In this document: positions 1,273-44,098 of the stretch, piece after piece
Position numbering within the stretch: position 1 is the first letter of the stretch
How the letters are laid out: each line of letters opens with the position of its first letter
Assembly: GCA_963784195.1 (NCBI GenBank)
Contig: CAWARA010000031.1
Span: 124,113 to 188,112 of the forward strand
Reading direction: 5' to 3'
Length of the DNA: 64,000 bases
Source: an uncultured Acidobacteriota bacterium
Lineage (GTDB): Bacteria > Acidobacteriota > Vicinamibacteria > Vicinamibacterales > 2-12-FULL-66-21
The notes under the pieces: generated by a model
Told to the model about the DNA's origin: nothing
Database searches by the model: none
What the model saw: the letters and a program-made list of their open reading frames with translations, nothing else
Made by a program: the position numbers and the translations under genes

Positions 1273-2908
1273 ATGCGTGCTCGCAGATGGATCCTTTCCC
1301 TGAGCCTGACGGCAGCAATCGTTTCGACGCCGTTGGCGCAGAGCCGGCCGGCGCCGGCGCCGGCGCAGAAGGCGGCCGAGGTCAAGCCGGATGATCCGAA
1401 AACGGCGAAGCTGAAGGCCGAGGCAATCAAAGACGTCGAGGCGATGAAAGAGTTCTCGCAGCAGATGGTGGATTCCATCTTCAGTTTCTCCGAGCTGGGT
1501 TTTCAGGAAATCGAAACCCACCGCTACCTCGTCGACATTCTGAAGAAGAACGGGTTCACGGTTCAGGAGGGCATTGCCGGCATTCCGACGGCCTTCATGG
1601 CGACGTGGGGATCGGGTAAGCCTGTCCTGGCGCTCGGATCGGACATCGATGGCATTCCGCAGGCGTCACAGAAACCAGGTGTCGCCTACCACGATCCGAT
1701 GATTCCGGGGGCGCCCGGACATGGAGAAGGGCACAACTCCGGGCAGGCCGTGAACATCACGGCGGCGATTGCGGTCAAGAAACTGATGGAGCGCGAGAAG
1801 CTGCCGGGCACGATTCGCATCTGGCCGGGGACCGCAGAGGAACTGGTGGGCACGAAGGCGTACTTCGTCCGCGAAGGCTTCTTCAAAGACGTGGACATCG
1901 CGCTCTTCACCCACGTTGGCGACAACCTGGGCGTTTCATGGGGTGACGCGTCGGGCACGGGGCTGGTGTCGGTCCAGTACGCGTTTCCAGGGGCAGACCG
2001 CTCACTCGGCTGGCGCGCCCTGGCGCGGACGAAGCGCGCTCGACGCCGTGGAACTGATGAACATCGGGTGGAACTTCCGGCGGGAGCACCTTCCACTCGA
2101 GCATCGCTCGCACTACGTGGTCACCGATGGCGGCGATCAGCCCAATGTCGTGCCGCGAACAGCGTCGGTTTGGTATTACTTCCGGCAGACTACCTATCCC
2201 ACGATCAAAGAGCTGTGGCAGATTGGCGACGACATCGCAAAGGGCGCCGCGATGATGACCGGCACCGAGTTGCTCCCGATGCGCGTGCTCGGCTCGGCGT
2301 GGCCCCGGCACTTCAACAAGACGGTTGCCGAGGTCACCTGGGCGAACATCCAGAAGGTGGGGCTCCCCGAGTGGAGCGAGGACGATCAGATGCTTGCACG
2401 CGCGCTGCAGAAGGAACTTGGCAACAGCACCCAGCGCGGGCTCTCGGTGAAGCTGCCAGAGCAGCTCGAAGGACCGATCAGGGAAAACAGGGGCGGCGGC
2501 TCGGACGACATCGGCGACATTTCCTGGAACGTGCCGACGGTCACGATGCGCTACCCCTCGAACATTCCGGGGCTGCCCGGCCACAACTGGGCGAACGCCA
2601 TCTCGATGGCCACCCCGATCGCACACAAGGGCGTCACGGCAGGTGCCAAGGTCCAGGCGATGACCATGCTGGATCTGCTGCTGAAGCCGGCGCTCGTCGA
2701 TCAGGCGTGGGACTACTTCCGCACCGTGCAGACGAAAGAGATCAAGTACGAGCCGCTCATCCGTCCGGAGGACAAGCCGGCCGTCCATCTGAACAAGGAG
2801 ATCATGGACAAGTACCGGCCGGAGCTGAAGAAGTTCTACTACGATCCGTCGCGCTACAAGACCTATCTCGAGCAGCTGGGGATCGCCTATCCGACGGTCA
2901 AGAAATAG
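1273..2908 (+). pseudogene. M20 family amidohydrolase/peptidase (AbgB-like) with signal peptide and an apparent +1 frameshift near 1984-1993
   Basis: The N-terminal part (frame 1) carries M20 motifs. After 'VSVQYAF' the frame becomes nonsense, while frame 2 continues with conserved 'QGQTAHSAGAPWRGRSALDAVELMNIGWNF...' through to the stop at 2908. An extra T in 'gcgTTTccagggg' reconciles the two frames. Confidence 0.75.
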
Positions 2909-2918
2909 GCGGCGTCCG

Positions 2919-5300
2919 CTATTCGGCGCGCGGGGGTACGACGTGACGGCGGACGTCGCCCTGGACCTTGGACAGGTCCACCGCGGCGTCGTTCTGAGGG
3001 AGCGCGAGAAAGTATTCGGTGAGGGGACGATCGTCGGTCAGGATGGTTCCCTGACCGACGAATGCCCGCATCTCATCAGGTCCGGCCACGTACCGCGACA
3101 GCAACGCGCTGAAGCTGCCCATCCCCATAGATTCGAGCGCCCGGCGCGAATCCTCGTTGGCCAGCTTGCGATCGAACGCATCCTGATCGAGCACCAGCGG
3201 CCTGCGGGACCCGACCATCAGCGTCCCGTGTTCCCACAGCGTCGTGTGCGGAAAGACGCTGAGGAACGTCCGCATGATCAACTTGTATTCGGTGACGGTT
3301 CCGCTGCCGATCCACTGCACGGCGATGCCGTGATTGTTGAGCACGCGCGACATCAGCCGGTAGTACTCGGCCGAGTAGAGGTTGCCTGCGCCGGCGTGGA
3401 CGGGGAGGATGACGTCCGCTGTGACGATGTCGTACCGCTTGTCGGTCAGCAGCATGTAGTTCCGGCCGTCGTCGATGTGCACGTGCACGTTCGGCCGGCG
3501 CAGCAGGTCGAAATTGATGCCGCTGAACTGCCCTGCGGCGGCGACGACTGCCGGTGACAGCTCGATGACGTCGACGTCGAGTTGTGGACTGTATGCGCCC
3601 ACCGCGCCTGCGGTCGCGCCTCCGCCCGCACCGATGACGAGAGCCTTGTGCGGCTCGGGCTGAATAGCCAGACCGAGCGTGCCGATGGTGCGGTGATACG
3701 CGACCATGCTCGGCTCGTCGCTGGCCTGGTGCATGCCGTTGATGTAGAGGTAGTGGATGATGTTCTGGGCGAAGCGAGACGCGCGCCGGAGGATGGTCAC
3801 GGTTGCGTGGCCGTCTTCGTTCCGCCACACCTGAACCTGCCCGGGAAATCGGGCGTTCAGCAGGCTGGTCACCGGATCGGGCGTGGACATCGCGATGGCC
3901 ACGAACGCGAGCAGCGCCACGGCGCCACCGGCGATCGCGAGAACGCGCTGCTTCAGCTGCGAAAGCAGCAGCAGCCCGGTGCACAACGAGAGCGCGGAAA
4001 TGACGATCAGCGTCACCCGGCTCCCCAGCAGCGGCAACAGCGCAAAGCCCGTCAGGAGTGCACCCGCAACCGCACCCGCGACGTTGACCGCGTAGATGAA
4101 GCCGACACGCTCGCCCGCCCGCTCTTCGGTTACGTCTCCAGCCCACAGGGCGATGCCGATCGGAAACGCCATCCCCATCATCAAGGCCACAGGGAAAATC
4201 GCCGCGATGCTCGTGACCGCCATCGGGCCGAAGTACGCCAGGCGACTTCCCGCAAAATGCGGAGCCGCCCACCCGTAGACAGCGCCGGCCTGCCCGACGA
4301 CGGCCATCGACAGAATGGATGTCAGCGCGACGAGCACTTCGAGGATCGCCAGGAGCGCGAGAGGATTCAGCCGGCGCCGGTTCATGAGCGGCGTTGCCAG
4401 CGCACTGCCGAGCGCGATTCCCGCGAGCACGGTCGCCAGCATCACGGTAAACGCGTACGTCGTCGGCATCAGGAGCACGACGAGCAGCCGGAACCAGACG
4501 ATTTCGAGCGCGAACGATGCGAAGCCCGAGACCGCGAACGTCAGCAGGACCAGCGTGTGAACGATCGGTCGTTTGGCAGGACTCGCTGGAATCGCATCGG
4601 CCGCCGGTTGCTCGGGTGATTTGGCGGGGAGGGTGCCGGCCGTTCTTTCGTAAAACGCCGAAAGCGCGAAGGCGCCGACGCTCACGATCAGGTTGGCCAG
4701 GGCGCCGATGCGAAACGCCCACTCGATGCCGAGCTGGGGAACGAGCCACAGGCCGGCGAACAGCGCGCCGACGATGGCGCCGCCGGTGTTGAACGCATAG
4801 AGCAGGCTGATCTGACGGCCGAGAAGGGACCCCGTGCCAAGCGCCGACTTCACGACGAGCGGCAACGTGGCACCCATCAACGTCGTGGGGACGATGAGGA
4901 TCGCGAACGACAGCGCAAAACGAATGATCGTGACGAAAACCGGTGCGCCACTGAAGGTCGGGTAGAGCCGGACGTAGAGCAGTTCAACTGCGTCGAGGAG
5001 GAACGGCGTCGACAGCGCGGCCACGGCGACCAGCGCTTCGGCGATTGCGAACGCGCGGAGCGGCCTCCGCACGCGATCGGCGAATCGTCCCGCAGTCGCG
5101 CTCCCGAGCGCGAGGCCCATCATGAACGCCGCCAGCACGGTGCTCGCTGCGTGCACCGTGACGCCGAACACGAGGGCGAGCAACCGCATCCAGAGAACCT
5201 GGTAGATGAGGGCGCTTGCGCCGGACAGAAAGAAGAGCAGCAACAATGGCGCGAGCGGCGCACCCGCCTGGCGCGCACGCGTCGCGGGGGAATGAATCAT
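2919..5300 (-). CDS. Fused polytopic membrane domain / spermidine synthase (polyamine aminopropyltransferase) family protein
   Basis: 793 aa. The N-terminal two-thirds is hydrophobic with multiple TM helices. The C-terminal part has SpeE-like motifs (LVIGAGGGATA...VDVIELSP...DDGRNYM...YDIVTADV). Confidence 0.8.
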   Translation of the reverse strand: MIHSPATRARQAGAPLAPLLLLFFLSGASALIYQVLWMRLLALVFGVTVHAASTVLAAFMMGLALGSATAGRFADRVRRPLRAFAIAEALVAVAALSTPFLLDAVELLYVRLYPTFSGAPVFVTIIRFALSFAILIVPTTLMGATLPLVVKSALGTGSLLGRQISLLYAFNTGGAIVGALFAGLWLVPQLGIEWAFRIGALANLIVSVGAFALSAFYERTAGTLPAKSPEQPAADAIPASPAKRPIVHTLVLLTFAVSGFASFALEIVWFRLLVVLLMPTTYAFTVMLATVLAGIALGSALATPLMNRRRLNPLALLAILEVLVALTSILSMAVVGQAGAVYGWAAPHFAGSRLAYFGPMAVTSIAAIFPVALMMGMAFPIGIALWAGDVTEERAGERVGFIYAVNVAGAVAGALLTGFALLPLLGSRVTLIVISALSLCTGLLLLSQLKQRVLAIAGGAVALLAFVAIAMSTPDPVTSLLNARFPGQVQVWRNEDGHATVTILRRASRFAQNIIHYLYINGMHQASDEPSMVAYHRTIGTLGLAIQPEPHKALVIGAGGGATAGAVGAYSPQLDVDVIELSPAVVAAAGQFSGINFDLLRRPNVHVHIDDGRNYMLLTDKRYDIVTADVILPVHAGAGNLYSAEYYRLMSRVLNNHGIAVQWIGSGTVTEYKLIMRTFLSVFPHTTLWEHGTLMVGSRRPLVLDQDAFDRKLANEDSRRALESMGMGSFSALLSRYVAGPDEMRAFVGQGTILTDDRPLTEYFLALPQNDAAVDLSKVQGDVRRHVVPPRAE

Positions 5301-5390: not shown

Positions 5391-6758
5391 ATGCCGGAGC
5401 ACACTCGCCCCGCGCGGGGCATGCGGGACTTCCTGCCCGAGGACGTCCGTCGCCGCGATTACGTGATCGCCATCGTCAGAGACGTCTATCAGCGGTACGG
5501 GTTCGAGCCGCTCGAGACTCCGTCGCTCGAGAACATCGAGACGCTGACCGGCAAGTACGGTGAAGAGGGCAACAAGCTCATATTCAAGGTGCTGCGGCGC
5601 GGCGAGCACGAGTCGTCGGGCGAAACCGATCTGGCGTTGCGCTACGACCTGACCGTCCCGCTGGCGCGTGTCGTTGCTGAATATCGCGGCAAGCTGCCGA
5701 AGTTCTTCAAGCGCTACCAGATTCAGCCCGTGTGGCGCGCCGATCGGCCGGCCCGCGGCCGCTTTCGCGAGTTCTATCAGTGCGACGTCGACTCCATCGG
5801 ATCGCGGTCGATGGTGGTCGAGGCGGAATTGTGCTCTGCGGTGTCCGACGTGCTGACCCGGCTCGGTTTTGACAACTTCACGCTGAAGTTGAACGACAGG
5901 CGCGTCTTGAGCGGGTTGCTGTACGCCGCCGGTGTTCCGGCGGAAATGCACGGCACGGCGCTCGTGGCGCTCGACAAGCTCGACAAGGTCGGCTTCGAAG
6001 GCGTCGAACGCGAGTTGCGGGAGCGCGGCGTGCCGCCCGGCGACGACGGCCAGTATCTCGGGCCATGGCGGCAACTGCTGCCGTTGTGGGAGAACGCGTC
6101 CGATCCGGCGAAGGCGAATCACGACTCGATCGATCTCCTGCGGCAGCTGCTGGCCGGGCATGTCGACGCCCGGGAAGGCGTCGATGATCTCGACGAGATA
6201 CTCAGGTACACGTCCCAGACCTCGGCCGGACGGCATCTGCGTTTCGACGCCACGCTGGCGCGGGGCCTGTCGTACTACACCGGCGCGATCATGGAGATCA
6301 CCGTGCCGGATCTCGCCGGCAGCCTGGGTGGCGGCGGCCGCTACGACAACCTGATCGGCATGTTCCTCGGCGAGAACATCCCGGCCTGCGGGTTCTCGCT
6401 CGGGCTCGAGCGGATCCTGGTCGTCATGTCGGAGCGGCAGATGTTTCCGGCAGACGTCCAGCAGGCTGCGGCCGATGTGATGATCACGTTGTTCGACTCG
6501 TCGTCGGTCGAGGATGCGCTGGCGCTCGCCGCCGAGCTGCGGGCCGACGGGCGTCGCGTCGAGGTCTATCCGGAGCCCGACAAGCTGGGGAAGCAGTTCA
6601 AGTACGCCGCCGCCCGCGGCGTCCGCTACGTGCTGGTCGTTGGCGCGGACGAGCGGGCGAGAAACGAAGTCACGGTCAAGGACATGACTACCGGCGACCA
6701 GACGTCGGTGCCACGGGCCGAGCTCGAGGCGAGGCTGCAGGCGGCGCGTCACGAATAG
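5391..6758 (+). CDS. hisS: Histidine--tRNA ligase
   Basis: Class II aaRS HisRS motifs (RGMRDFLPED, FKRYQIQPVWRADRPARGRFREFYQCDVD, GGGRYDNLIGMF). Confidence 0.9.
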   Translation: MPEHTRPARGMRDFLPEDVRRRDYVIAIVRDVYQRYGFEPLETPSLENIETLTGKYGEEGNKLIFKVLRRGEHESSGETDLALRYDLTVPLARVVAEYRGKLPKFFKRYQIQPVWRADRPARGRFREFYQCDVDSIGSRSMVVEAELCSAVSDVLTRLGFDNFTLKLNDRRVLSGLLYAAGVPAEMHGTALVALDKLDKVGFEGVERELRERGVPPGDDGQYLGPWRQLLPLWENASDPAKANHDSIDLLRQLLAGHVDAREGVDDLDEILRYTSQTSAGRHLRFDATLARGLSYYTGAIMEITVPDLAGSLGGGGRYDNLIGMFLGENIPACGFSLGLERILVVMSERQMFPADVQQAAADVMITLFDSSSVEDALALAAELRADGRRVEVYPEPDKLGKQFKYAAARGVRYVLVVGADERARNEVTVKDMTTGDQTSVPRAELEARLQAARHE

Positions 6759-6789: not shown

Positions 6790-8559
6790 ATGAACGTACC
6801 TCTCGGAACACTTGCGCGCACGCACACGTGCGGCGAGCTCGGCGCCGCCGACGTCGGCAAGGACGTCGTGCTGCTCGGCTGGGTCCATCGGATCAGGGAT
6901 CTCGGATCGCTGGTCTTCATCGACATCCGCGATCGCCATGGCCTGACGCAGGTCGTGGCGCGCGAGAGCGGCGACCTCGTCGCCGCCGCGCAGCGTCTTC
7001 GGCCTGAGTACGTCGTTGCGATACTGGGCAAGGTCGAGGGACGCGCACCTGAGACGGTCAATCCCAAGATGAAGACCGGCGAGATCGAAGTCGCCGTCAG
7101 CGAGATCCGTCCCCTCAACGACGCGAAGACGCCGCCGTTTCCAATTGCCGACGAATCTCCGGTGTCGGAAGACACACGGTTGAAATACCGCTACCTCGAC
7201 CTTCGCCGCCAGCGCATGCAGCGAAACATGATCCTGCGGCACAAGACGACGATGGAGGTGCGGAAGTATTTTGACGAACAAGGTTTCCTGGAGATCGAGA
7301 CGCCGATGCTCACCAAGTCGACGCCCGAGGGGGCGCGCGACTACCTGGTGCCCAGCCGGGTCCACCCCGGTGAGTTCTACGCGCTGCCGCAGTCGCCGCA
7401 GATCTTCAAACAGATCCTGATGATCTCGGGAATGGACCGCTACTTCCAGATCGTCAAGTGCTTCAGAGACGAGGACCTGCGCGCCGATCGGCAGCCCGAG
7501 TTCACGCAGGTCGATCTCGAGATCTCGTTCGGGACCGAGAACCTCGTGTTCTCGGTCATCGAGCCGCTGATGGGCCGGCTGATGGGGCTCATCGGGCGCG
7601 ATGCCCCGCAGCCATTCCTGCGGCTCCCGTATTCCGAGGCGATCGCGAAGTACGGCTCCGACAAGCCCGATCTGCGGGTGGGCATGGAGATCAGGGAACT
7701 GGCCGCAGCGTTCGCTGATTCGGAGTTCTCTGTCTTCCGCGGCGCAATCGACAAGGGTGGCGTCGTCCGCGGTTTCGCGGCACCCGGCGTCGCGAAGTAT
7801 TCGCGGCGGGAGCTCGACGAGCTGGTAGAGCAGGCGAAGCAGCTTGGCGCCAGCGGCCTGGTCTGGGCGCGACTCGCGGAAGGTGCGGTGCAGAGCCCGG
7901 CACTGAAGGCGGCTGGCGAGCCGGCCATCCGGCGAGCGATCGAGCTGGCAGGTGCCGGTGCCGGGGATCTGGTGCTGATGGCCGCGGGTTCCGCGGATGC
8001 CACGTCGAAGGTCCTCGGACAGCTGCGCCTCAACATCGCGCGCAAGGAGAACCTGCTCGATCCGCAGAAGTTCGCCTTCCTCTGGGTCGTCGACTTTCCC
8101 ATGTTCGAGTGGGTCGAGGAAGAGCAGCGCTACGAGTTCATGCACCACCCGTTCACGTCGCCGCTCGAGAGCGATGCGAACCTCCTGGAGACCGATCCGG
8201 GGCGCGCCCGAGCTCGCGCGTACGACCTCGTGCTGAACGGCAGCGAGATCGCCGGCGGCAGCATTCGAATCCACGACCAGACCCTGCAGCGCCTGATCTT
8301 CAAGCTGCTGCAAATCTCGGACGAGGAAGCACGGCTGCGCTTCGGGTTCTTCCTGGAAGCGCTGGAATTCGGCACGCCGCCTCACGGCGGGATTGCCCTC
8401 GGGCTGGACCGTATCGTCGCCATTCTGTCTGGCGAGAGCTCCATCCGCGACGTGATTGCGTTCCCGAAGACGGCGCAGGCGGTCGACCTCATGGCGGGGG
8501 CGCCGTCAACCGTCAATGAGAAGCAACTGCGTGAATTGGGGATCGATGTGAAAGGGTAG
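6790..8559 (+). CDS. aspS: Aspartate--tRNA ligase
   Basis: AspRS motifs: N-terminal OB fold (RTHTCGEL...VLLGWVHRIRDLGSLVFIDIRD), class II core (FQIVKCFRDEDLRADRQPEFTQVD), GG..RIHD, GLDR. Confidence 0.9.
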   Translation: MNVPLGTLARTHTCGELGAADVGKDVVLLGWVHRIRDLGSLVFIDIRDRHGLTQVVARESGDLVAAAQRLRPEYVVAILGKVEGRAPETVNPKMKTGEIEVAVSEIRPLNDAKTPPFPIADESPVSEDTRLKYRYLDLRRQRMQRNMILRHKTTMEVRKYFDEQGFLEIETPMLTKSTPEGARDYLVPSRVHPGEFYALPQSPQIFKQILMISGMDRYFQIVKCFRDEDLRADRQPEFTQVDLEISFGTENLVFSVIEPLMGRLMGLIGRDAPQPFLRLPYSEAIAKYGSDKPDLRVGMEIRELAAAFADSEFSVFRGAIDKGGVVRGFAAPGVAKYSRRELDELVEQAKQLGASGLVWARLAEGAVQSPALKAAGEPAIRRAIELAGAGAGDLVLMAAGSADATSKVLGQLRLNIARKENLLDPQKFAFLWVVDFPMFEWVEEEQRYEFMHHPFTSPLESDANLLETDPGRARARAYDLVLNGSEIAGGSIRIHDQTLQRLIFKLLQISDEEARLRFGFFLEALEFGTPPHGGIALGLDRIVAILSGESSIRDVIAFPKTAQAVDLMAGAPSTVNEKQLRELGIDVKG

Positions 8560-11394: not shown

Positions 11395-11556
11395 AATGGG
11401 CGATGGGCGATGGGCGATGGGCGAAGGCGTGAAAGACAATAGGAAGCCTGACCCATTGCCCATGGCCCATTCCCAATCGCCCATTGCCCATCGCCCATTG
11501 CCCATCGCCCATTGCTCTCCGCCCATTGCCCATTCCCAACGCCCATCGCCCCATCG
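11395..11556. repeat. Heptanucleotide tandem repeat array: (ATGGGCG)~4, about 25-bp spacer, then inverted (CCCATYG/CGCCCAT)~14
   Basis: Read directly: gaatgggcgatgggcgatgggcgatgggcga ... cccattgcccatggcccattcccaatcgcccattgcccatcgcccattgcccatcgcccattgctctccgcccattgcccattcccaacgcccatcgcccc. The forward and inverted arrays can pair into a long hairpin. It lies between the corC stop and the era start. Confidence 0.85.
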
Positions 11557-13769: not shown

Positions 13770-14426
13770 ATGCCGGCGTCGAAACCGGCATCGAGGAGTG
13801 AGGCGGCTCTGACCCACGGACTGCCGGACGACGCGTTGATGGCCCGCATCGTGGCGGGTGATGCGCTGGCTTTTACGGAGCTGTTCAGGCGCCGTCAAGG
13901 CGAGGTGTATCGGTTCGCCCTGCACATGACCGCCTCGCCGCAGATCTCCGAAGACGTGACGCAGGACGTTTTCATCGCCGTGATGAAAGACGCTGCCCGT
14001 TACGACTCCGCGCGGGCGCCGGTGATCGCCTGGCTCTGTGGCATCGCCAGGAACTTCGTCCGGCGCCGGCTCGAGCGCGATCGTGCGCTGCTGCCGCTGG
14101 TGGACGACGACTCGGGCCTGGAACCGGAACTGCCCGCGGTCCTGGAGCATCCGCTCGACGACTTGACGCGCGCAGAGCGAATCGAGGGACTTCGCCGTGC
14201 GATTCTGACCCTCCCGCTGCGATACCGCGAGGTTGTCGTGATGTGCGATCTGCAGGAGATGACTTACGTGGATGCCGCTGAGGCAGTCGGATGCGCGGTG
14301 GGCACGGTTCGGTCGCGCCTCCATCGTGGACGAGCGCTGCTCGCGAGCAAGCTGACGGCGACCGGGCTGCCGGTTGAGGATGGTGGCCGGAGGATGTCCC
14401 TCCGTCGCGTGAGGTGCCTCGCATGA
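13770..14426 (+). CDS. ECF (sigma-70 family group 4) RNA polymerase sigma factor
   Basis: Region 2 (FTELFRRRQGEVYRFALHM...DVTQDVF) and region 4 HTH (LPLRYREVVVMCDLQEMTYVDAAEAVGCAVGTVRSRLHRGR). Divergent from the B3 MBL gene. Confidence 0.85.
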   Translation: MPASKPASRSEAALTHGLPDDALMARIVAGDALAFTELFRRRQGEVYRFALHMTASPQISEDVTQDVFIAVMKDAARYDSARAPVIAWLCGIARNFVRRRLERDRALLPLVDDDSGLEPELPAVLEHPLDDLTRAERIEGLRRAILTLPLRYREVVVMCDLQEMTYVDAAEAVGCAVGTVRSRLHRGRALLASKLTATGLPVEDGGRRMSLRRVRCLA

Positions 14427-15187
14427 CTTGCCATGAGCTGCGCGACGCGCTCGTCGATCACGCGCGTGGTGCACTGAACGGGGTTGGAAGCCGGGCGGCC
14501 ATCGAGAGTCATCTCGAGCACTGCCATGCGTGCGCCACCGAGTTTGCCCGCCAGCGTGCACTGAGTGAGGGCCTGCGGGCGGTCGCCAGGGCGTCCGCAC
14601 ACGAGGCTGCGCCGGCTGCGCTCGAAGATCGGCTGATGTCGGCCTTTGCCTCTCATCACTCTGCGCAACAGCCATCGGCGCCGGCCATCAGGCGCAGGCT
14701 TTCACCCTGGTTGGCGGCGGCCGCGTCGATTGTCATCGTCGGTGGGGTGTCGTATGCGGTGATGAATCGGGTGAAGCCGGAGGGGACGGAGGGCACGGAG
14801 ACGGAGGTGGTCCGGCTAAAGCCGGACACTACGGCGGCGAACGACGGGGTCAGGCCGAAGCCGGAGGCCACGGAGGTCCGGCTGAAGCCGGACGCTACGA
14901 AGGCCAACAGTGTCAGGAGGGCGGGCTCGACTACAGGGCCGAGGCCCGGGCTGAGGATGGACGATTTCGTGGCCTTGCCAGGCGCGGTTGGCTTGCCGAC
15001 GTTCGAGAGCGGGCGAATCGTGCGCATCGATCTTCCAGTGTCGTCGCTCCCGGCCTATGGCGTGGAACTCGTGCCTGACGCCGCCCGAAGCGAAGTGCAG
15101 GCCGATGTGCTCGTCGGGCAGGACGGCCAGGCTCGAGCGATTCGACTAGTGGCGACATCCAGCGCCCGGAGCGGGGTCAGACCATAA
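14423..15187 (+). CDS. Anti-sigma factor with N-terminal zinc-finger (zf-HC2: H..HL..CHAC) and one TM helix
   Basis: The ATG overlaps the sigma-factor stop (ATGA at 14423-14426). It has HLEHCHAC, a TM segment WLAAAASIVIVGGVSYAV, and periplasmic tail repeats (EVVRLKPDTTAAN / EVRLKPDATKAN). Confidence 0.75.
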   Translation: MTCHELRDALVDHARGALNGVGSRAAIESHLEHCHACATEFARQRALSEGLRAVARASAHEAAPAALEDRLMSAFASHHSAQQPSAPAIRRRLSPWLAAAASIVIVGGVSYAVMNRVKPEGTEGTETEVVRLKPDTTAANDGVRPKPEATEVRLKPDATKANSVRRAGSTTGPRPGLRMDDFVALPGAVGLPTFESGRIVRIDLPVSSLPAYGVELVPDAARSEVQADVLVGQDGQARAIRLVATSSARSGVRP

Positions 15188-17671: not shown

Positions 17672-17757
17672 CTGTCGGGGCTCGGGACTCGTAGCTCGGT
17701 AAGCTACCGATCCCGGCTCGTATCGATGAGAATGCGAGTCCCGAGTCCCGAGCACCG
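17672..17757. repeat. Intergenic nested inverted repeat built from GGGACTCG/CGAGTCC heptamer units
   Basis: gctcgggactcg (17680-17691) pairs with cgagtcccgagc (17742-17753). There is an inner tcggta-agc-taccga hairpin. The right arm is cgagtcccgagtcccgagcacc, which also occurs inside ybeY (9855-9900). Confidence 0.5.
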
Positions 17758-36072: not shown

Positions 36073-36343
36073 GGATTGTATTGTACAAGCGGCGTTCTGT
36101 CAGCTTTACTTAATGCGCGCGGGGCCCTCCGCCTCCGCGCGCCACCGATCCATGGCGCGCTACGGCGAGACCTCGCCGTAGCTGGTCGCAGAGTCACACG
36201 CGACCTGCGAAGGCGGGCACCCCCGCGCGCTTTTACGCGCTTCGCGCGACGGCCTTTGGCCTTGCCGCCTCCGCGTGCTTCATGCGCGGAGGCGGCCTAT
36301 CGTCACTGATTGGGCCCACGGGGCTTCAATAACTGCTACCATC

Positions 36344-38363: not shown

Positions 38364-39528
38364 ATGAAACCAGCCACGGAATTGATCCACCGACCCGGAC
38401 GATGTCGCGGTCAAGGCCGCTGCGCCTCTGACGTCGCCGATCTACGAGACGACGACGTTCCTCTTCGAGAGTGCGGAAGAGGTCCGGGACTACAACGAGG
38501 GGCGATCGGAGAAGTTTCTCTATTCCCGCTACTCGAACCCGACCGTCGTGGAGGTCGAGCGGACGATTGCCGCGCTCGAGGCGGCAGAGGCGGCGCTCGT
38601 GCTGTCCAGCGGTCAGGCTGCCACCGCCACCGCGCTCCTCGCGCTGACGAAGGCTGGCGACGAGGTCGTGTGCAGCTCCGCGATCTACGGCGGCACGCTT
38701 CACCTGCTCAACGATCTGCTGGCCCGATTCGGTATTCGCGCGCGGTTCGTGTCGATCGACGAGCTGCGTCGTCCGGAGTCGGTGCTGACGGACGCCACAA
38801 AGGTCCTGTGGTTCGAATCGCCCATCAATCCGACGTTGCGCTGCGTGGATATTGCGGCGATAGCCAGCGCCTGCCGCGCTCGGGGCGTGACGTCAGTCAT
38901 CGACAACACGTTTGCGAGTCCGATGAACCAGCAGCCGGTCACCATGGGCATCGACGTCGTGATGCACAGCGCGACCAAGTATCTCAACGGTCACAGCGAC
39001 GTGACCGCCGGCGTGCTCGCTGGCCGGGCGGCGCTGATCGCGGAGGTGCTCAAAGCCCGCAAGCTGATTGGAACGGTTCTCGACCCGTCGGCGGCGTATT
39101 CCCTGGGCCGCGGCGTGAAGACGTTGTCCGTTCGCATGGAGCGACACAATGCGAACGCCCTCGCCGTTGCGAAATGGCTCGACCGTGACGACCGTGTGGA
39201 GACTGTCTACTATCCCGGTCTCGAATCGCATCCGGATCATGCGATTGCCAGGCGGCAGATGCGCGGCTTCGGGGGCATGGTCTGTATCGATCTCGGCGGC
39301 GACTACTCGCGCGCGGCCCGGTTCTTCGATCGGTTGCAGGTCTTCCGGCGCGCGGCGAGCCTTGGCGGCGTCGAGAGCCTGTGCAGCCTCCCGGTGCTGA
39401 CGTCACAGTGGGGGCATTCGGACGACGAGCTTCGCCGCGCTGGTGTGACTCGCGGCATGGCCAGGCTGTCGGTGGGTCTCGAAGATCCGGAGGACCTGAT
39501 CGCCGATCTGGATCAGGCGCTGGGCTAG
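38364..39528 (+). pseudogene. Cys/Met-metabolism PLP-dependent enzyme (cystathionine gamma-synthase/lyase family) with an apparent +1 frameshift at about 38390
   Basis: ATG 38364 gives MKPATELIHRP in frame 0. The conserved body is in frame 1 ('DDVAVKAAAPLTSPIYETTTFLF...', PLP-Lys motif SATKYLNGHSD). Confidence 0.7.
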
Positions 39529-39940
39529 GGCAGGAGGGGACGAGGGGACGGAGGGAACGGAACAAGCTTCAACTCGGAGACTCAGAGCAACGGAGTTCCT
39601 CTAACCTGAGCGCTCGGAGCCGATGCCGGCCCGGCCGTAGGCCGGGCCGGGCGATCGACCGACACCCCGCGGGCACAAGCCGCCTCCACCCTTCGCCCGC
39701 GGCTTGTGTCCGCGGGGTGTCGGTCGATCGCTCGCCGCGCTGCGCGCGGCGGCATCGGCGGGTTGGCGCGTGGTGTCTCGTGGCCTGTCACGAGATGTGT
39801 AGGATCATCAGGCCACGGCCGGCCGGCGATTCCCGCCGCGTGCACGGCGGCGCGTCGTCCGCGCGCTGAAGCCGCTTGCCTCCGTTTCTCCGAGTCTCTG
39901 AGTTGAAGCTTGTTCCGTTCCCTCCGTCCCCTCCCCCTGT
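39529..39940. repeat. MITE-like nested palindromic element, about 410 bp, with about 45-bp terminal inverted repeats and about 7 internal GC-rich hairpins
   Basis: Left arm 39541-39586 'cgaggggacggagggaacggaacaagcttcaactcggagactcaga' is the reverse complement of right arm 39888-39935 (one mismatch). An internal 30-bp stem cgaccgacaccccgcgggcacaagccgc//gcggcttgtgtccgcggggtgtcggtcg and several shorter hairpins are present. CTAGG flanks both ends. Confidence 0.6.
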
Positions 39941-39960
39941 GCCCTCCGTAGAACTCCTCC

Positions 39961-41424
39961 CTAGGACGACTTGGCGAGTACTTCCTTTTTCTTCTCGGCT
40001 GCCGGCTCGTGGAGGAAGACCTCAGCCAGTTCCGCAATCTTGAGGCTGATGTCGGGGCCCGAGAGGTCGCCGAACTTCTGACGGAAGCGTTCGATCGGGA
40101 CGACGGCCTTGGCCATCGCCCGATGACCACCGGCGCTGCCAACGTCGCCGAACCACCGCCGCACGAATTCCCCGGCGTTCCTGGAATACCCGAGGTTCCG
40201 CACGCTCACGATGAGCGAGCCGTTGACCACGCCTGCGACGATCGTCCACTTCACGTCTTCGAGCTGCAGGAAGAAATCAGCGGTGTAGGGGATGAAGTCT
40301 TCGCGTGGCGCTTCGCCGATGAAAGCGCTGAACACCTGCTCGCGCATGATCCCGCCCTGGCTCGCGCGTGTCACATATTCCAGCCGCTCGAGCGTGATTT
40401 CCGCCCCCTCCATCTTGCGGATGAGCGCCGCGTCGGCCAGCGGATACAGGAACGTGAACGCCTCGAGATCCACCCGGTTGGTGTGGCGGGCGAAGAACAG
40501 CGTGTCCGACTTGATCGCGTAGAGCATTGCGGTCGCTGTGCGCTCCGAGATGTTCACGTCGACGGCCCTGAGATGCTCGGTCAGGATGGTGGACGTTGAC
40601 CCGTAGTCGGCGCGGATGTCCTTGAAGACGGCGCTGTAACCGGGCTGCTCGGGATGATGATCGATGACGAGATCGGCGCGGTCGAGCAGACCGCCGAAAT
40701 AATGCGGCTGCACGTCGACAGTTGCGATACGTTCGAACTCTTCGAATGATGCCGGCGTGATGCGCTCGACGTGGATGTCGAGCATGTTGGCCATCCGCAG
40801 GTTCTCCGGCCGTGTGACGCCCTGCATGGCGCCGATGATCGCCGTCGTTTTGGTTCGGCGCAGCAGGTTGCGAAGCGCGAGGCCGCTGGCCAGCGCGTCA
40901 GGATCCGGATCGTTGTGCAGGAGGATCAGCACGCGATCGGCGTCGGCAAAGTAACGCTGATACTGCTGCACGCGCGCGCGCGTCATCGAGCGGCTCAGCT
41001 CCGTCACCAGCGTCGGGCGAATCAGCTCGGCGACGTCCATGTGCGTGACGTCAGCCATCGCCTCCCGCGCCGCCTCGGACATGCGCGTGTTTCGCGGACC
41101 GGTGTGCAGCACGTAAATCAACGTGCCTCCCGCGTCACGCACCGCAGACACGACCTTGTGGATGCTGCGGCGTCCGTTGTCTTCGATGATGAAACAGGTG
41201 CTGGGGGAGATGTCCGCTTTCAGGTAGGTATCGATGCGGCGCGGGTCGGCGGCGCTTATGCGGATGCCGGCGTCGTGGAGGCGCCTGGCCAGGGGGCGGC
41301 TTTCCACGAGGAAATCCACCTCGAAGCTCGGGAGCAGCACGTCGTCCAGCGAGCGAATGACCAGCTCGTCTTGACAGATGGCGAGGACGCGCACGTCAGC
41401 CGAGCCTCCGGTAGCGGCTCGCAC
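39961..41424 (-). CDS. DHH-family phosphoesterase (DHH + DHHA1) with an extra N-terminal domain of about 150 aa
   Basis: DHH motif region (ILLHNDPDPDALASG, VIDHH) and DHHA1 (GGHRAMAKA). Confidence 0.75.
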   Translation of the reverse strand: MRAATGGSADVRVLAICQDELVIRSLDDVLLPSFEVDFLVESRPLARRLHDAGIRISAADPRRIDTYLKADISPSTCFIIEDNGRRSIHKVVSAVRDAGGTLIYVLHTGPRNTRMSEAAREAMADVTHMDVAELIRPTLVTELSRSMTRARVQQYQRYFADADRVLILLHNDPDPDALASGLALRNLLRRTKTTAIIGAMQGVTRPENLRMANMLDIHVERITPASFEEFERIATVDVQPHYFGGLLDRADLVIDHHPEQPGYSAVFKDIRADYGSTSTILTEHLRAVDVNISERTATAMLYAIKSDTLFFARHTNRVDLEAFTFLYPLADAALIRKMEGAEITLERLEYVTRASQGGIMREQVFSAFIGEAPREDFIPYTADFFLQLEDVKWTIVAGVVNGSLIVSVRNLGYSRNAGEFVRRWFGDVGSAGGHRAMAKAVVPIERFRQKFGDLSGPDISLKIAELAEVFLHEPAAEKKKEVLAKSS

Positions 41425-41524: not shown

Positions 41525-43996
41525 ATGAGAAACCCTGTGCAACTTCTTCCACTTCTGGCGTGGACGCTGCTGCCGGTCATGCTGGCGGGGGACGCCCGAG
41601 CCCAGCCGCCCTGCGCAACCTGCGTGGCGATACTCGTCCCGGCAGGCGCCGCCGACCTGCTTCCCGGTGGGCTCGATGGCCTGACAGTGATCGTGGAGGT
41701 GTCTCCAGGCGAAGAGCAGAGAGCAGCAGGGAGTGTCGACTTGATTCGGCGCAAAGGCGGGAAGGCCGGAGTGCTCGTCACAGGTGCGTCCGAAGCATCG
41801 ACCAATTTGCCGCGAGTCGATCTGCTAATCGTTGACGTGAGCCGGGACCGGGCGAATGAGGGGACACCGTTCGAGCTTCGGAAGCGGCTGGCCGCCCTTC
41901 GGGGCGAGCTCCCCGCTGGGCGCCTCGGCATCTTGATGGCGTCGGCTTCCGATTCCGGAAGTCTCGTTCACGAGCTCGCCCCGTATGTGGATTTCGTCGT
42001 CTGGGGCAATGGGCCGCCGGCCTCTTCAGTTACTGCAGTCTGGCAACACGGCGGCGAGGTAAGTAGCGCCCTCGATGCGATGAATCTGACGAGAGCCAGC
42101 AGTGCTGAAAACGTGCTCGTTCGTCCCACGCTCGACAGCCTCACCCGGACGGTCTCGGATCTCGTCCACGCGAGATCGATGCTTGCTTCACACCTCGACG
42201 TGGTCGCGGCACGTGCATTGAGGATTGACGAGATCGTCGCGAGGCATCAGGCGTCGGTGGCGAGACAGGCGGCACGCATTCACTCGCTCATCTCGACCGG
42301 GACGCTGACGGTGACGTTCGAGGCGCCAGGTTTCCCGGCGCCAATCACCGTCAGCGCCGAATCGATCGCCTACGCAGTTGGCCCGCACGCCGACATCGAA
42401 TTGCGCTCGGTGCGCGTCAACGGGATCGAGTTCCGGGGCTCGGGCATTCCGCGTCTCCCAATCATCGAGCCTGAACGCGTCTCGACGCCTCCACTGACGA
42501 TCGCGTTGACGGACGCGTACCGTTACGAGTTGCGCGGCACCGACGAGGTCGAGGGGACTCGATGCTACGTCGTGGACTTCGAACCTGTCTCGCGAAAGGG
42601 TTCGTTCTTTACGGGCCGGTCGTGGATCGATGTCGAGACCTTCGGCCTGGTCCGTGTCGAGGCGCGTCAGACCGGTTTGCGCGGGCCGATCGTCGCGTCC
42701 GAGCAGGTTGACGAGTACCGCCGCGCGAGCGGGAATCTCTGGCTGCCCAGCCGCTCTCATGTGAAGCAGCTATACGAAGGGGCTGCGCACCGGACGCCTA
42801 TCGATCGCGTGCTCGTTACGGCGAACCACGAGATTGATGCGCCGGATTTCGAGACGCGCCGACTGGTCGCACACGCGTCCAACGCGTTGATGCTGCGCGA
42901 CAGCCCTTCGGGCTTCCGGTATGTCCGGCCATCGACGGACGCCGGGATCCGGCCGTCAGGCGCGCCAGCCGAGACTGAGCCCGACGCCGGCGATCGCGCC
43001 AGTCATGTCCGGACGATCGTGATGGGGGCGATGTTCGATCCGAACATCAGCTATCCACTTCCATTTGCCGGCTTGAGCTACGTCGATTTCGATCTGTTCG
43101 GCACGGGAACGCAGCTCAACGGCTTCTTCGGCGGGTCGTACGGACAACTGGCCATCTCGGTGCCGTCGCTCGGAGGCACCCGCTGGCAACTCGGCGGCCG
43201 CGGGTTCGCGATCCTGACATCGTTCAACGACCGGTCATTCGTCGACGGCCGCGAACGCTATGACGCGAACATCAGCCAGCGTCCGGCGCACGGTTCAGTC
43301 TGGCTCGTTCGCCCGCTGACGACGCGGGTGTCGGTCAAGGCGGGATACGAGCTGGACTACGTGCGGTACCGCGCCAACGACACAACGGCAGACACGTTCG
43401 CCGTCCCCGCCGATCAGCTCGTCCATGGCTTCCGCGCATCGGTCGAGGCTCAGCGGGGCGGCTGGCGGGCGAGCGCATGGTGGAACCCCGCCGTCCGTTC
43501 CGGCTGGCGTTCATGGGGGGCGCTCGAGAACAGCGAGTATCGCGCCGATCATCACGACTTTCAGCGGGCCGGCATCTCGCTGACGCGGATCACCGTGCTC
43601 TCTCCGGCGCTCGTGGTTCGAGGTGAGGGGAGCTGGATGATGGGCCGCGACCTCGACCGGTTCAGCCGGATGGCGTTCGATGCATTTGAGAATCGTCTTC
43701 GTGGTTTTCCTGCGGCCCTGATCCGGTATGATCGCGGCGCGGTGCTGCGTGGCACCGCCGCCTGGTCGCTCGGATCGCGAATGCGCCTGGACGGGTTCGT
43801 GGATACGGCGTTCGTCCACGACCCGGGACTGAGTGACGGATTGACCCGGCTGACCGGTGTCGGAGGCGCACTCGAAGTGCCGGCGCCCTTCGGCATGCTC
43901 GTCGCTGCGGAGTGGGGCTACGGCATTCAGGGACGTCGCGCCGACGGCGGCCGGGGCACACAGGTCGTCCGCATCACGGGTTACAAGATTTTCTGA
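41525..43996 (+). CDS. Large secreted/outer-membrane protein: signal peptide, a LolA-like central domain, and a C-terminal predicted beta-barrel ending in ...YKIF
   Basis: Signal peptide MRNPVQLLPLLAWTLLPVMLAGDARA. A C-terminal aromatic residue (F) is typical of OMP barrels. No close family recognised. Confidence 0.55.
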   Translation: MRNPVQLLPLLAWTLLPVMLAGDARAQPPCATCVAILVPAGAADLLPGGLDGLTVIVEVSPGEEQRAAGSVDLIRRKGGKAGVLVTGASEASTNLPRVDLLIVDVSRDRANEGTPFELRKRLAALRGELPAGRLGILMASASDSGSLVHELAPYVDFVVWGNGPPASSVTAVWQHGGEVSSALDAMNLTRASSAENVLVRPTLDSLTRTVSDLVHARSMLASHLDVVAARALRIDEIVARHQASVARQAARIHSLISTGTLTVTFEAPGFPAPITVSAESIAYAVGPHADIELRSVRVNGIEFRGSGIPRLPIIEPERVSTPPLTIALTDAYRYELRGTDEVEGTRCYVVDFEPVSRKGSFFTGRSWIDVETFGLVRVEARQTGLRGPIVASEQVDEYRRASGNLWLPSRSHVKQLYEGAAHRTPIDRVLVTANHEIDAPDFETRRLVAHASNALMLRDSPSGFRYVRPSTDAGIRPSGAPAETEPDAGDRASHVRTIVMGAMFDPNISYPLPFAGLSYVDFDLFGTGTQLNGFFGGSYGQLAISVPSLGGTRWQLGGRGFAILTSFNDRSFVDGRERYDANISQRPAHGSVWLVRPLTTRVSVKAGYELDYVRYRANDTTADTFAVPADQLVHGFRASVEAQRGGWRASAWWNPAVRSGWRSWGALENSEYRADHHDFQRAGISLTRITVLSPALVVRGEGSWMMGRDLDRFSRMAFDAFENRLRGFPAALIRYDRGAVLRGTAAWSLGSRMRLDGFVDTAFVHDPGLSDGLTRLTGVGGALEVPAPFGMLVAAEWGYGIQGRRADGGRGTQVVRITGYKIF

Positions 43997-44098
43997 AGAG
44001 CGGGAAGAGAGCGGCCGATGTCAACTCCCGACTCCCAAGCTCCGACTCCCAAGCAGAACACAGTCGATCGGCCGAGAGGTCATTGGGCTCACCGCAAG

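Follow-up and report, generated by a model that had tools for sequence, protein, structure and literature searches.

What occupies the gap between two convergent genes in an uncultured Acidobacteriota bacterium, and how did it come to lie there? The window considered here is the whole stretch of DNA that was analysed, 64,000 nucleotides (nt) of contig CAWARA010000031.1. Within it, a nested palindrome fills the space between the TAG stop codon of a pyridoxal phosphate (PLP) enzyme gene (39526-39528) and the TAG of a DHH-family phosphoesterase gene (39961-39963, - strand). A first-pass annotation, made from the letters of the window, had noticed that the palindrome bridges the two stop codons, which segment 39530-39960 bears out, and had favoured a mobile composite, resembling a miniature inverted-repeat transposable element (MITE) or a BIME, over a terminator. 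That preference is upheld, as other copies exist and the site is polymorphic. Comparison of the sequences suggests that the segment belongs, as one copy, to a family of small mobile repeats of soil Acidobacteriota that are non-coding and had not been described before.

Filled and empty alleles of the PLP-DHH spacer

The PLP-DHH locus was compared in 20 other assemblies; L-numbers denote fetched loci or contigs of such assemblies. Thirteen related assemblies have merely 9-10 nt between the stop codons (...GCTAGG-CGCGGTTCGT-CTACGACGAC...), and the same intergenic region is filled in three closely related ones, the window included. By BLAST, the empty locus L001 and the window share 99.0% identity over 21 kb, and the sole large difference between them is 10 nt versus 431 nt at 39530-39960. 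Two assemblies from other samples are filled at identical junctions, by 419 nt in L053 and by 637 nt in L051, the latter allele including an extra piece of ~105 nt and an internal duplication of ~100 nt.

In a tree of the DHH gene, the filled alleles (window, L053, L051) form one cluster with at most 0.56% divergence, nested among empty alleles that diverge by 0.6-1.7%. Up to the junction, filled and empty alleles do not differ in their flanks. Because the filled alleles cluster among empty ones and their flanks are unaltered, the comparison points to the window copy as a recent gain in the ancestor of the three sampled strains. Import of the filled allele by homologous recombination from a diverged donor was considered and rejected, since the window flanks match empty alleles right to the junction. 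The converse idea, that the empty allele is an excision footprint, was rejected as well: L031, an outgroup lineage ~10% divergent, is empty with a spacer of equal length.

The same site has a further history in a clade ~10% divergent in the DHH gene. There it holds a decayed 225-nt relative with a diverged arm, a remnant of core stem P1 (described below) and a similar right terminus, and the same clade also shows a G-rich remnant of 59-62 nt. The decayed relative, with the empty L031 at about the same divergence, implies that the stop-to-stop site either took up an insertion twice or has been polymorphic for long, and the clean flanks of the window favour two insertions.

The junctions indicate replacement of the target. 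CTAGG marks the left and the right border of the element (39525-39529 and 39961-39965 in the window), as the first-pass annotation had pointed out, and does so in all three filled alleles. It is not an insertion duplication, because in empty alleles the contexts of the two stop codons, 10 nt apart, already read CTAGG (PLP) and CTACG (DHH). The right CTAGG is one base off the native CTACG; the three full alleles and the 225-nt copy share this change, and the G-rich remnant lacks it. In the window the element stands in place of the 10-nt spacer, and no target duplication was made. Target-site duplications, which the first-pass annotation had proposed to look for, were likewise found neither at the minimal arm ends of 10 full copies nor at any other copy compared.

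The outer ends of several copies read stop-G-GAGGAG or TAGG(G)AGGAG, not consistently, and a flank comparison of ~30 arms shows TAGG(G)(C)AGGAG as a recurrent motif there in several copies. Read as sequence, this pattern is suggestive of a preferred terminus or of microhomology. Every resolvable copy has at least one flank that is a gene 3' end, often 0-11 nt from the stop codon, and at four sites the copy spans the gap of a convergent gene pair from one stop codon to the other. By itself, location at 3' ends is no evidence of targeting, because a compact genome tolerates insertions there.

Arms, core and copies of the repeat family

The window copy is composed of the following parts, given with coordinates, strand and basis.

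39530-39960, no strand: whole inserted segment, 431 nt, standing where empty alleles have the 10-nt spacer CGCGGTTCGT (BLAST against L001)
39530-39540, +: left outer G-rich lead GCAGGAGGGGA, right behind the PLP stop (flank comparison of ~30 arms)
39541-39597, +: left arm, ACGGAG-type 9-mer repeats followed by AACGGAACAAGCTTCAACTCGGAGACTCAGAGCAACGGAG (inverted repeat; nhmmer arm profile, E = 1.9e-17)
39598-39618, no strand: left variable spacer, common only to copies L020 and L029
39619-39626, +: 5' side of core stem P1, GCCGATGC, partner 39752-39759 (alignment and consensus structure)
39626-39650, +: core hairpin A, CCGGCCCGGCC-GTA-GGCCGGGCCGG, an 11-nt inverted repeat, 100% complementary; stem invariant family-wide
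39651-39731, +: core hairpin B, 33-nt arms 39651-39683 and 39699-39731 with a 15-nt loop; sequence differs among copies, pairing kept
39733-39751, +: core hairpin C, CGCCGCGC-TGC-GCGCGGCG, invariant stem; 6/6 pairs invariant, 100% paired
39752-39759, +: 3' side of core stem P1, GCATCGGC (inverted repeat; alignment)
39760-39879, no strand: right variable spacer with its own local hairpins (stems in minimum-energy folds)
39880-39934, -: right arm, reverse complement of the left arm (inverted repeat; nhmmer arm profile, E = 5.8e-17)
39935-39960, -: right outer tail CCCCTGTGCCCTCCGTAGAACTCCTCC, with one further CCCTCCGT repeat, up to the DHH stop (flank comparison)

The left-lead junction is the same in L051 and L053, and the right outer tail is conserved in both and similar in the decayed copy L054. 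The right spacer (BLAST of 39760-39880) is common to the allelic L051 and L053 and partly duplicated in L051; it has no significant match in the other loci searched.

The outer arms (39542-39595 and 39880-39933) are 54 nt long, 94% complementary and 284 nt apart. The repeat had been described as 45 bp with one mismatch; it is real but longer, and its 34-nt core alone has two mismatches between left and right copy. Further GC-rich hairpins, among them a long stem, had also been reported inside, and are present: an inner stem at 39643-39683 and 39699-39739 with 41-nt arms, 90% complementary, a perfect 11-bp hairpin at 39626-39650, and several shorter GC-rich stems, some of them within 39733-39852. 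Folded as RNA, the + strand reaches -325.8 kcal/mol (z = -17.8) and the - strand -311.8 kcal/mol (z = -16.2); folded as DNA, the + strand reaches -194.1 kcal/mol (z = -19.5). No shuffled sequence attains any of these three energies. The arm is present at just two places in the window, for a chance expectation of 0.00. Open reading frames (ORFs) across the element, translated, have zero homologues among 5.8 billion proteins, in keeping with their earlier dismissal as artefacts.

Additional copies were found with both modules. The arm 20-mer AACGGAACAAGCTTCAACTC occurs in 19 rhizosphere metagenome contigs at 12 distinct other sites, in metagenomes that also contain the species of the window. A profile search with the arm detected a second, inverted arm at 10 sites, giving full elements of 208-409 nt; with the PLP-DHH alleles, family members range over 208-637 nt. 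Solo arms occur in L019 and, at the thiS-thiG spacer, in L011 and L016. In this spacer (L011 ~6900-7010, L016 ~7050-7160) the solo arm follows the ThiS C-terminus ...VGGG without a stop codon, so that ~50 codons of the arm are read as part of the thiS ORF, an oddity given that the protein requires a free Gly-Gly at its C-terminus.

In an alignment of 22 copies, the minimal arm consists of two tandem (G)ACGGAG(GG) units (up to 8 in some copies), followed by AACGGAACAAGCTTCAACTCGGAGA-NNCRGAG-NN-ACGGAG, and a second arm subtype reads ...AGCTTCAAAAACGGAGA. Arm identity is 0.85 within one element and 0.83 between elements. Because the first value barely exceeds the second, the arms are taken to be conserved as sequence, in the manner of a protein-binding site, and not just as a stem. 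For the same reason, a reading of the arms as a covarying stem was rejected. The plan common to the family is thus a pair of ~60-nt inverted arms, with tandem ACGGAG 9-mers first, variable spacers, and a ~140-nt core folding as a four-way junction.

The core, present in most copies, has the layout GCCGATGCC, hairpin A (GGCCCGGCC-N3-GGCCGGGCC), hairpin B (a stem of ~33 bp), hairpin C (CGCCGCGC-N3-4-GCGCGGCG) and GGCATCGGC. The consensus from an alignment of 12 cores is a four-way junction of P1 and hairpins A, B and C with 55 pairs, in which 96.4% of cells are paired. Changes on both sides affect 21/55 pairs, versus 6.5 +/- 1.8 in shuffled alignments (0/500 attain 21) and 1-7 in slid controls. 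They are concentrated in hairpin B, where 20/31 pairs have changed on both sides. In hairpins A and C and in most of P1 the sequence does not vary; the helix of A is 100% paired with 9/10 pairs invariant, and one P1 pair alternates between C-G, U-A and G-C. Read on one strand, the core mismatches are 11 G.U and 13 A.C. Because the two are balanced, neither strand is favoured, as for a palindrome at the DNA level rather than an RNA of one strand.

The core varies as a module. It is absent in L015 and L022, lacks hairpin B in L020, L014 and L048, and takes a symmetric A-B-A form in L029. Relative to the arm subtypes and to the neighbouring genes it is found facing either way, and it was not seen apart from arms in loci of the lineage to which the window belongs. 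Among representative genomes, the P1 and A core pattern matched 16 loci, of which five are true copies, all in the metagenome-assembled genome (MAG) MFD05176.bin.2.157 of an uncultured Acidobacteriota bacterium. The other 11 were discarded by profile checks as chance matches in coding DNA (Planctomycetaceae, Actinomycetes, Myxococcales, Alphaproteobacteria). Four of the five MAG copies have diverged arms of the same plan, and L042, from this MAG, holds a core copy without typical arms. Arrays of ~35-nt tandem repeats (...GATCCGCGAGAATCCGCGTCCCGTGAACCCAAGGGT...) adjoin the core in two loci of the same MAG, L033 (~5700-5890) and L042 (~6800-7040), where they replace one arm. The exact arm 20-mer has 0 matches in 185,579 representative genomes, and the degenerate arm and core patterns have 0 in viral contigs.

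Mobility, persistence and competing explanations

A second site documents change within the element over longer times. Three lineages with ~90% identity between their PriA proteins carry the element at the convergent priA-M50 peptidase site, all with identical outer junctions. Relative to L049, L050 has its entire interior inverted and its arm subtypes in place (interior identity 0.857 inverted versus 0.794 as read), which is attributed to recombination between the inverted arms. L048 has lost hairpins B and C and most of one arm; decay or truncation is seen also in L054, L055 and the solo arms. The L049 and L050 elements diverge by ~14%, versus 9-12% at third codon positions of the flanking genes, and pairing is kept. 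The sequence of the element drifts at about the neutral rate with its structure maintained, which could be due to selection, for mobility or for a host function, or to correction of one arm by the other.

The segment is likely to belong to a dispersed family of nested-palindromic mobile repeats, non-autonomous and MITE- or REPIN-like, in a Vicinamibacterales-type Acidobacteriota lineage. Such an element would be mobilised in trans by an enzyme encoded elsewhere in the genome, most plausibly one that recognises folded single-stranded DNA, such as a HUH/Y1 transposase of the RAYT or TIRYT type. The invariant hairpins or the arms would be putative binding sites, and covarying stem B may be a structural requirement. 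Once inserted, a copy could persist for long at a gene 3' end, its interior could flip through recombination between the arms, and it may grow by internal duplication and decay by deletion. As a side effect, so stable a hairpin would probably block or trim read-through from both convergent genes, and a secondary role as a barrier or 3'-end stabiliser for both transcripts would be plausible. A single-stranded route via a RAYT-type HUH/Y1 enzyme fits because there is no duplication, hairpin structure matters, and REPs (repetitive extragenic palindromes) of the GTAG type occur in the same genomes. These canonical REPs, GTAG[TC]GTCCGGCTT[TC]AGCCGGAC, differ in sequence from the element.

Searches around the copies brought up housekeeping genes and no transposase among the Pfam-annotated neighbours of 10 other copies, and no Y1/HUH transposase gene beside any copy examined. 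In L013 (~2780-4150), an insertion sequence of the IS256 family with ends GAGTGTCAGAGATTTTGTGTGTGGGG sits inside one element copy; the allelic contig L012 is without it. This insertion sequence was rejected as an autonomous partner, its ends being unrelated.

Several points weigh against mobility of this kind. Deletion of a 10-nt target without duplication is atypical for most transposition chemistries, and recombinational or repair-mediated insertion could equally account for it. No transposase is tied to the family, and we infer both the mobilising enzyme and the single-stranded route. The decayed relative occupying the same site within the ~10%-divergent clade leaves some room for an old polymorphism instead of a recent gain. 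Compensatory changes in a DNA palindrome can arise without selection, through arm-to-arm correction. Finally, the arm and core patterns are absent from the 185,579 representative genomes, one MAG excepted.

A bolder form of the mobile hypothesis is unlikely, if worth stating: the family could represent a new class of structured, non-autonomous transposon carried by single-stranded DNA. In it the four-way junction, with its invariant hairpins A and C and covarying stem B, and not the terminal repeats, would be the substrate of an as yet unrecognised enzyme (HUH/Y1-type or other). The short spacer separating convergent stop codons would be exchanged for the element, which replaces the target without duplication, the same stop-to-stop site would have been hit twice in two clades, and the interior would be invertible.

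Three functional or mechanistic alternatives to a non-autonomous mobile repeat draw on the same observations. It is rather improbable that the element is a host-selected cis element, a bidirectional transcription barrier or messenger RNA 3'-end stabiliser that spread and was kept for its usefulness and not for mobility. All resolvable copies do abut at least one gene 3' end, in four convergent pairs the element reaches from one stop codon to the other, the hairpin has extreme stability whichever strand is folded, and the priA-site copy retains its structure across lineages of ~90% identity. The PLP-DHH site works without the element in 13 related assemblies with their 10-nt spacer, however, and no T/U tract follows any stem. 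Divergence of the sequence (~14% versus 9-12%) is near the synonymous rate or above it, copies decay and are truncated (L048, L054, L055, solo arms), and a conserved 60-nt arm with an invariant core exceeds the needs of a terminator; tolerated selfish insertions would likewise sit at 3' ends. Origin as a classical MITE, which would derive by deletion from an insertion sequence with a DDE transposase, move by cut-and-paste and duplicate CTAGG or CTAG at its target site, would explain the long terminal inverted repeats, small size, lack of an ORF, many copies and insertion polymorphism, and the IS5 group does duplicate CTAG-type targets. CTAGG flanks all three filled alleles on both sides, but CTAGG and CTACG pre-exist in the empty allele and the 10-nt spacer is gone, which is replacement and not duplication. 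Direct repeats do not surround the other full copies, and neither the window nor ~400 kb of related loci showed an insertion sequence with these ends, those of the IS256-family element in L013 being unrelated. This origin has a small probability. A structured non-coding RNA gene, or an RNA of ribozyme-like or viroid-like type that would function through the four-way junction, has a smaller probability still. The strong covariation of the junction, the invariant short hairpins and the very high fold z-score would suit such an RNA. Rfam 15 gives no match at the gathering score and none even at E <= 10 (best sub-threshold score 21.8 bits versus a gathering score of 112), and a scan of both strands of 39200-40300 gave no terminator of the hairpin-plus-T-tract kind; promoter-like sites were not found either. 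Between G.U and A.C mismatches there is no imbalance. The core stands in either direction, with opposite directions even in orthologous copies; some copies have lost it, and the short form L015/L022 has none. The RNA gene entertained in the first-pass annotation is therefore not supported.

An artefact of long-read metagenome assembly, either a fold-back chimera or a mis-joined repeat, is barely credible. The window does contain indel errors of the long-read type, including the PLP frameshift described below, and palindromes are hard to assemble. Yet the same insertion with the same junctions appears in independent assemblies of other samples, L051 and L053, and the agreement of three independent assemblies therefore rules an artefact out at this site. 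Family members of like build also occur in short-read JGI assemblies from several samples, and the interior of the element holds no copy of adjacent genome sequence.

Known repeat families and the surrounding window

The element acts like a REPIN, a terminal inverted repeat (TIR) element or a MITE, is built as a mosaic in the style of BIMEs or BOX elements, and is outside the classical families, because it lacks the target duplication of a MITE, the unit and tag of a REP and the features of an intrinsic terminator. With MITEs in the classical sense it shares a length of 431 nt, no coding capacity, terminal inverted repeats, and dispersed copies in metagenome contigs and a second MAG, so that the earlier label MITE-like holds; the strict definition fails for want of a target-site duplication. 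We know of no cognate insertion sequence for the element, unlike for MITEs. Correia/NEMIS elements of Neisseria and ERIC/IRU elements of enterobacteria are bacterial MITEs, and Correia elements duplicate TA. Like these, the element has terminal inverted repeats, a size in the range of 100-400 nt and no ORF; it is scattered between genes in dozens of copies, is present in some strains and absent from others, and can fold over its whole length as one transcript hairpin. It differs from them in the missing target duplication, the deleted target spacer, the very long arms with tandem sub-repeats, and the covarying core.

REPs and REPINs are mobilised by RAYT transposases of the Y1, HUH type (Bertels & Rainey 2011, PMC3116915), and GTAG REPs are RAYT substrates in other bacteria (PMC3733652). 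RAYT-like TIRYT genes flanked by long inverted repeats include an Acidobacteria-specific group, and a TIR repeat family is known in Koribacter versatilis (Di Nocera et al. 2013, PMC3733652). The element and the REPIN/TIR repeats are alike as non-coding, multi-copy, intergenic palindromes lying mostly downstream of genes, and as inverted dimers that fold into long hairpins, make no target duplication and persist for long with pairing kept. As in a REPIN, two inverted units form a hairpin without target duplication. REP units are 20-40 nt long with a GTAG or CGTC tag, whereas the arms of the element are ~60 nt, begin with tandem 9-mers, are not self-complementary and have no tag at a fixed position, GTAG or CTAG standing near some outer ends. 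The motif GGGGWSAS, described for some TIRs (PMC3733652), is one position off in GGGGACGG of the arms and fits GGGGACAG of a few copies; it is too short to be meaningful. Also unlike REPINs and TIR repeats, the element encloses a second layer, the 140-nt four-way junction, spans 200-640 nt as a whole, and has no RAYT or TIRYT gene linked to it.

BIMEs of E. coli and BOX elements of Streptococcus pneumoniae are modular mosaic repeats. The element resembles them as a mosaic of reusable modules that are present, absent or duplicated from copy to copy, and in its position at gene 3' ends and between convergent genes. The sequences are unrelated, and the element is a strict nested palindrome, whereas BIMEs and BOX elements are tandem alternating units. 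To our knowledge, and as a further difference, the element has no IHF or gyrase sites. An intrinsic bidirectional terminator would likewise be a GC-rich hairpin exactly between convergent stop codons, but the element is ~10x larger, has no T/U tract on either strand, is multi-copy with conserved sequence, and is mostly absent in close relatives.

Small palindromic repeats are well studied in Proteobacteria and scarcely described in Acidobacteriota, which rank among the most abundant phyla of soil and are known mostly from metagenomes; literature searches returned no description of such a family in this phylum. The two-layer design with its covarying four-way junction offers handles of sequence and structure for finding the mobilising enzyme. 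Filled and empty alleles in 99%-identical strains make insertion, growth, inversion and decay traceable in natural populations. If insertion does alter PLP-DHH read-through, the site is a natural test of how repeats affect expression. Such elements also yield spurious ORFs and disrupt assemblies and gene calls in these MAGs.

The genes on either side of the element are as follows.

38386-39528, +: Cys/Met-metabolism PLP enzyme gene, 3' part (Pfam PF01053, E = 2e-115, profile positions 57-380 of 381)
39961-41394, -: DHH-family phosphoesterase, 477 aa, stop read as CTA at 39961-39963 (Pfam PF01368; protein identical to P0001 and P0002)

The N-terminal ~56 residues of the PLP gene are out of frame in the window. 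Compared with L001, four extra bases are clustered within ~40 bp (window 38386-38560, indels at ~38400-38430), and the gene is intact in relatives, where it encodes 385-386 aa. The frameshift is probably a long-read consensus error, with real inactivation possible. Close homologues of the DHH protein number in the hundreds in Vicinamibacterales-type Acidobacteriota. The mechanically called DHH ORF (39961-41424) has 487 aa, and every database homologue starts 10 codons downstream, at 477 aa.

Other palindromic repeats occur elsewhere in the window. Two canonical GTAG-type REPs (GTCCGGCT[AG]AAGCCGGAC[AG]CTACG) lie at 14776-14900 within a putative anti-sigma factor ORF (14414-15187). Just before them stand the same ACGGAG 9-mers as in the arms of the element. 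The REPs are read as ...EGTEGTETEVVRLKPDTT..., and the same REP family occurs in L018/L021, L022, L025, L026, L027 and L045. A long intergenic hairpin at 11395-11545, between a gene end and an Era-like GTPase gene, has tandem (ATGGGCG)n facing (CGCCCAT)n and resembles the arms in style, with short tandem repeats opposite their complement. Another hairpin, at 17676-17757, has arms of CGGGACT and AGTCCCG heptamer repeats. Two further intergenic spacers differ strongly in length among strains, 36095-36327 (233 nt versus 168, 307 or 30 nt) and 43995-44090 (96 nt versus 56 or 3 nt). Both consist of small hairpin modules in mosaic arrangement; CTAC...GTAG flanks some of the modules, and some are inverted between strains.

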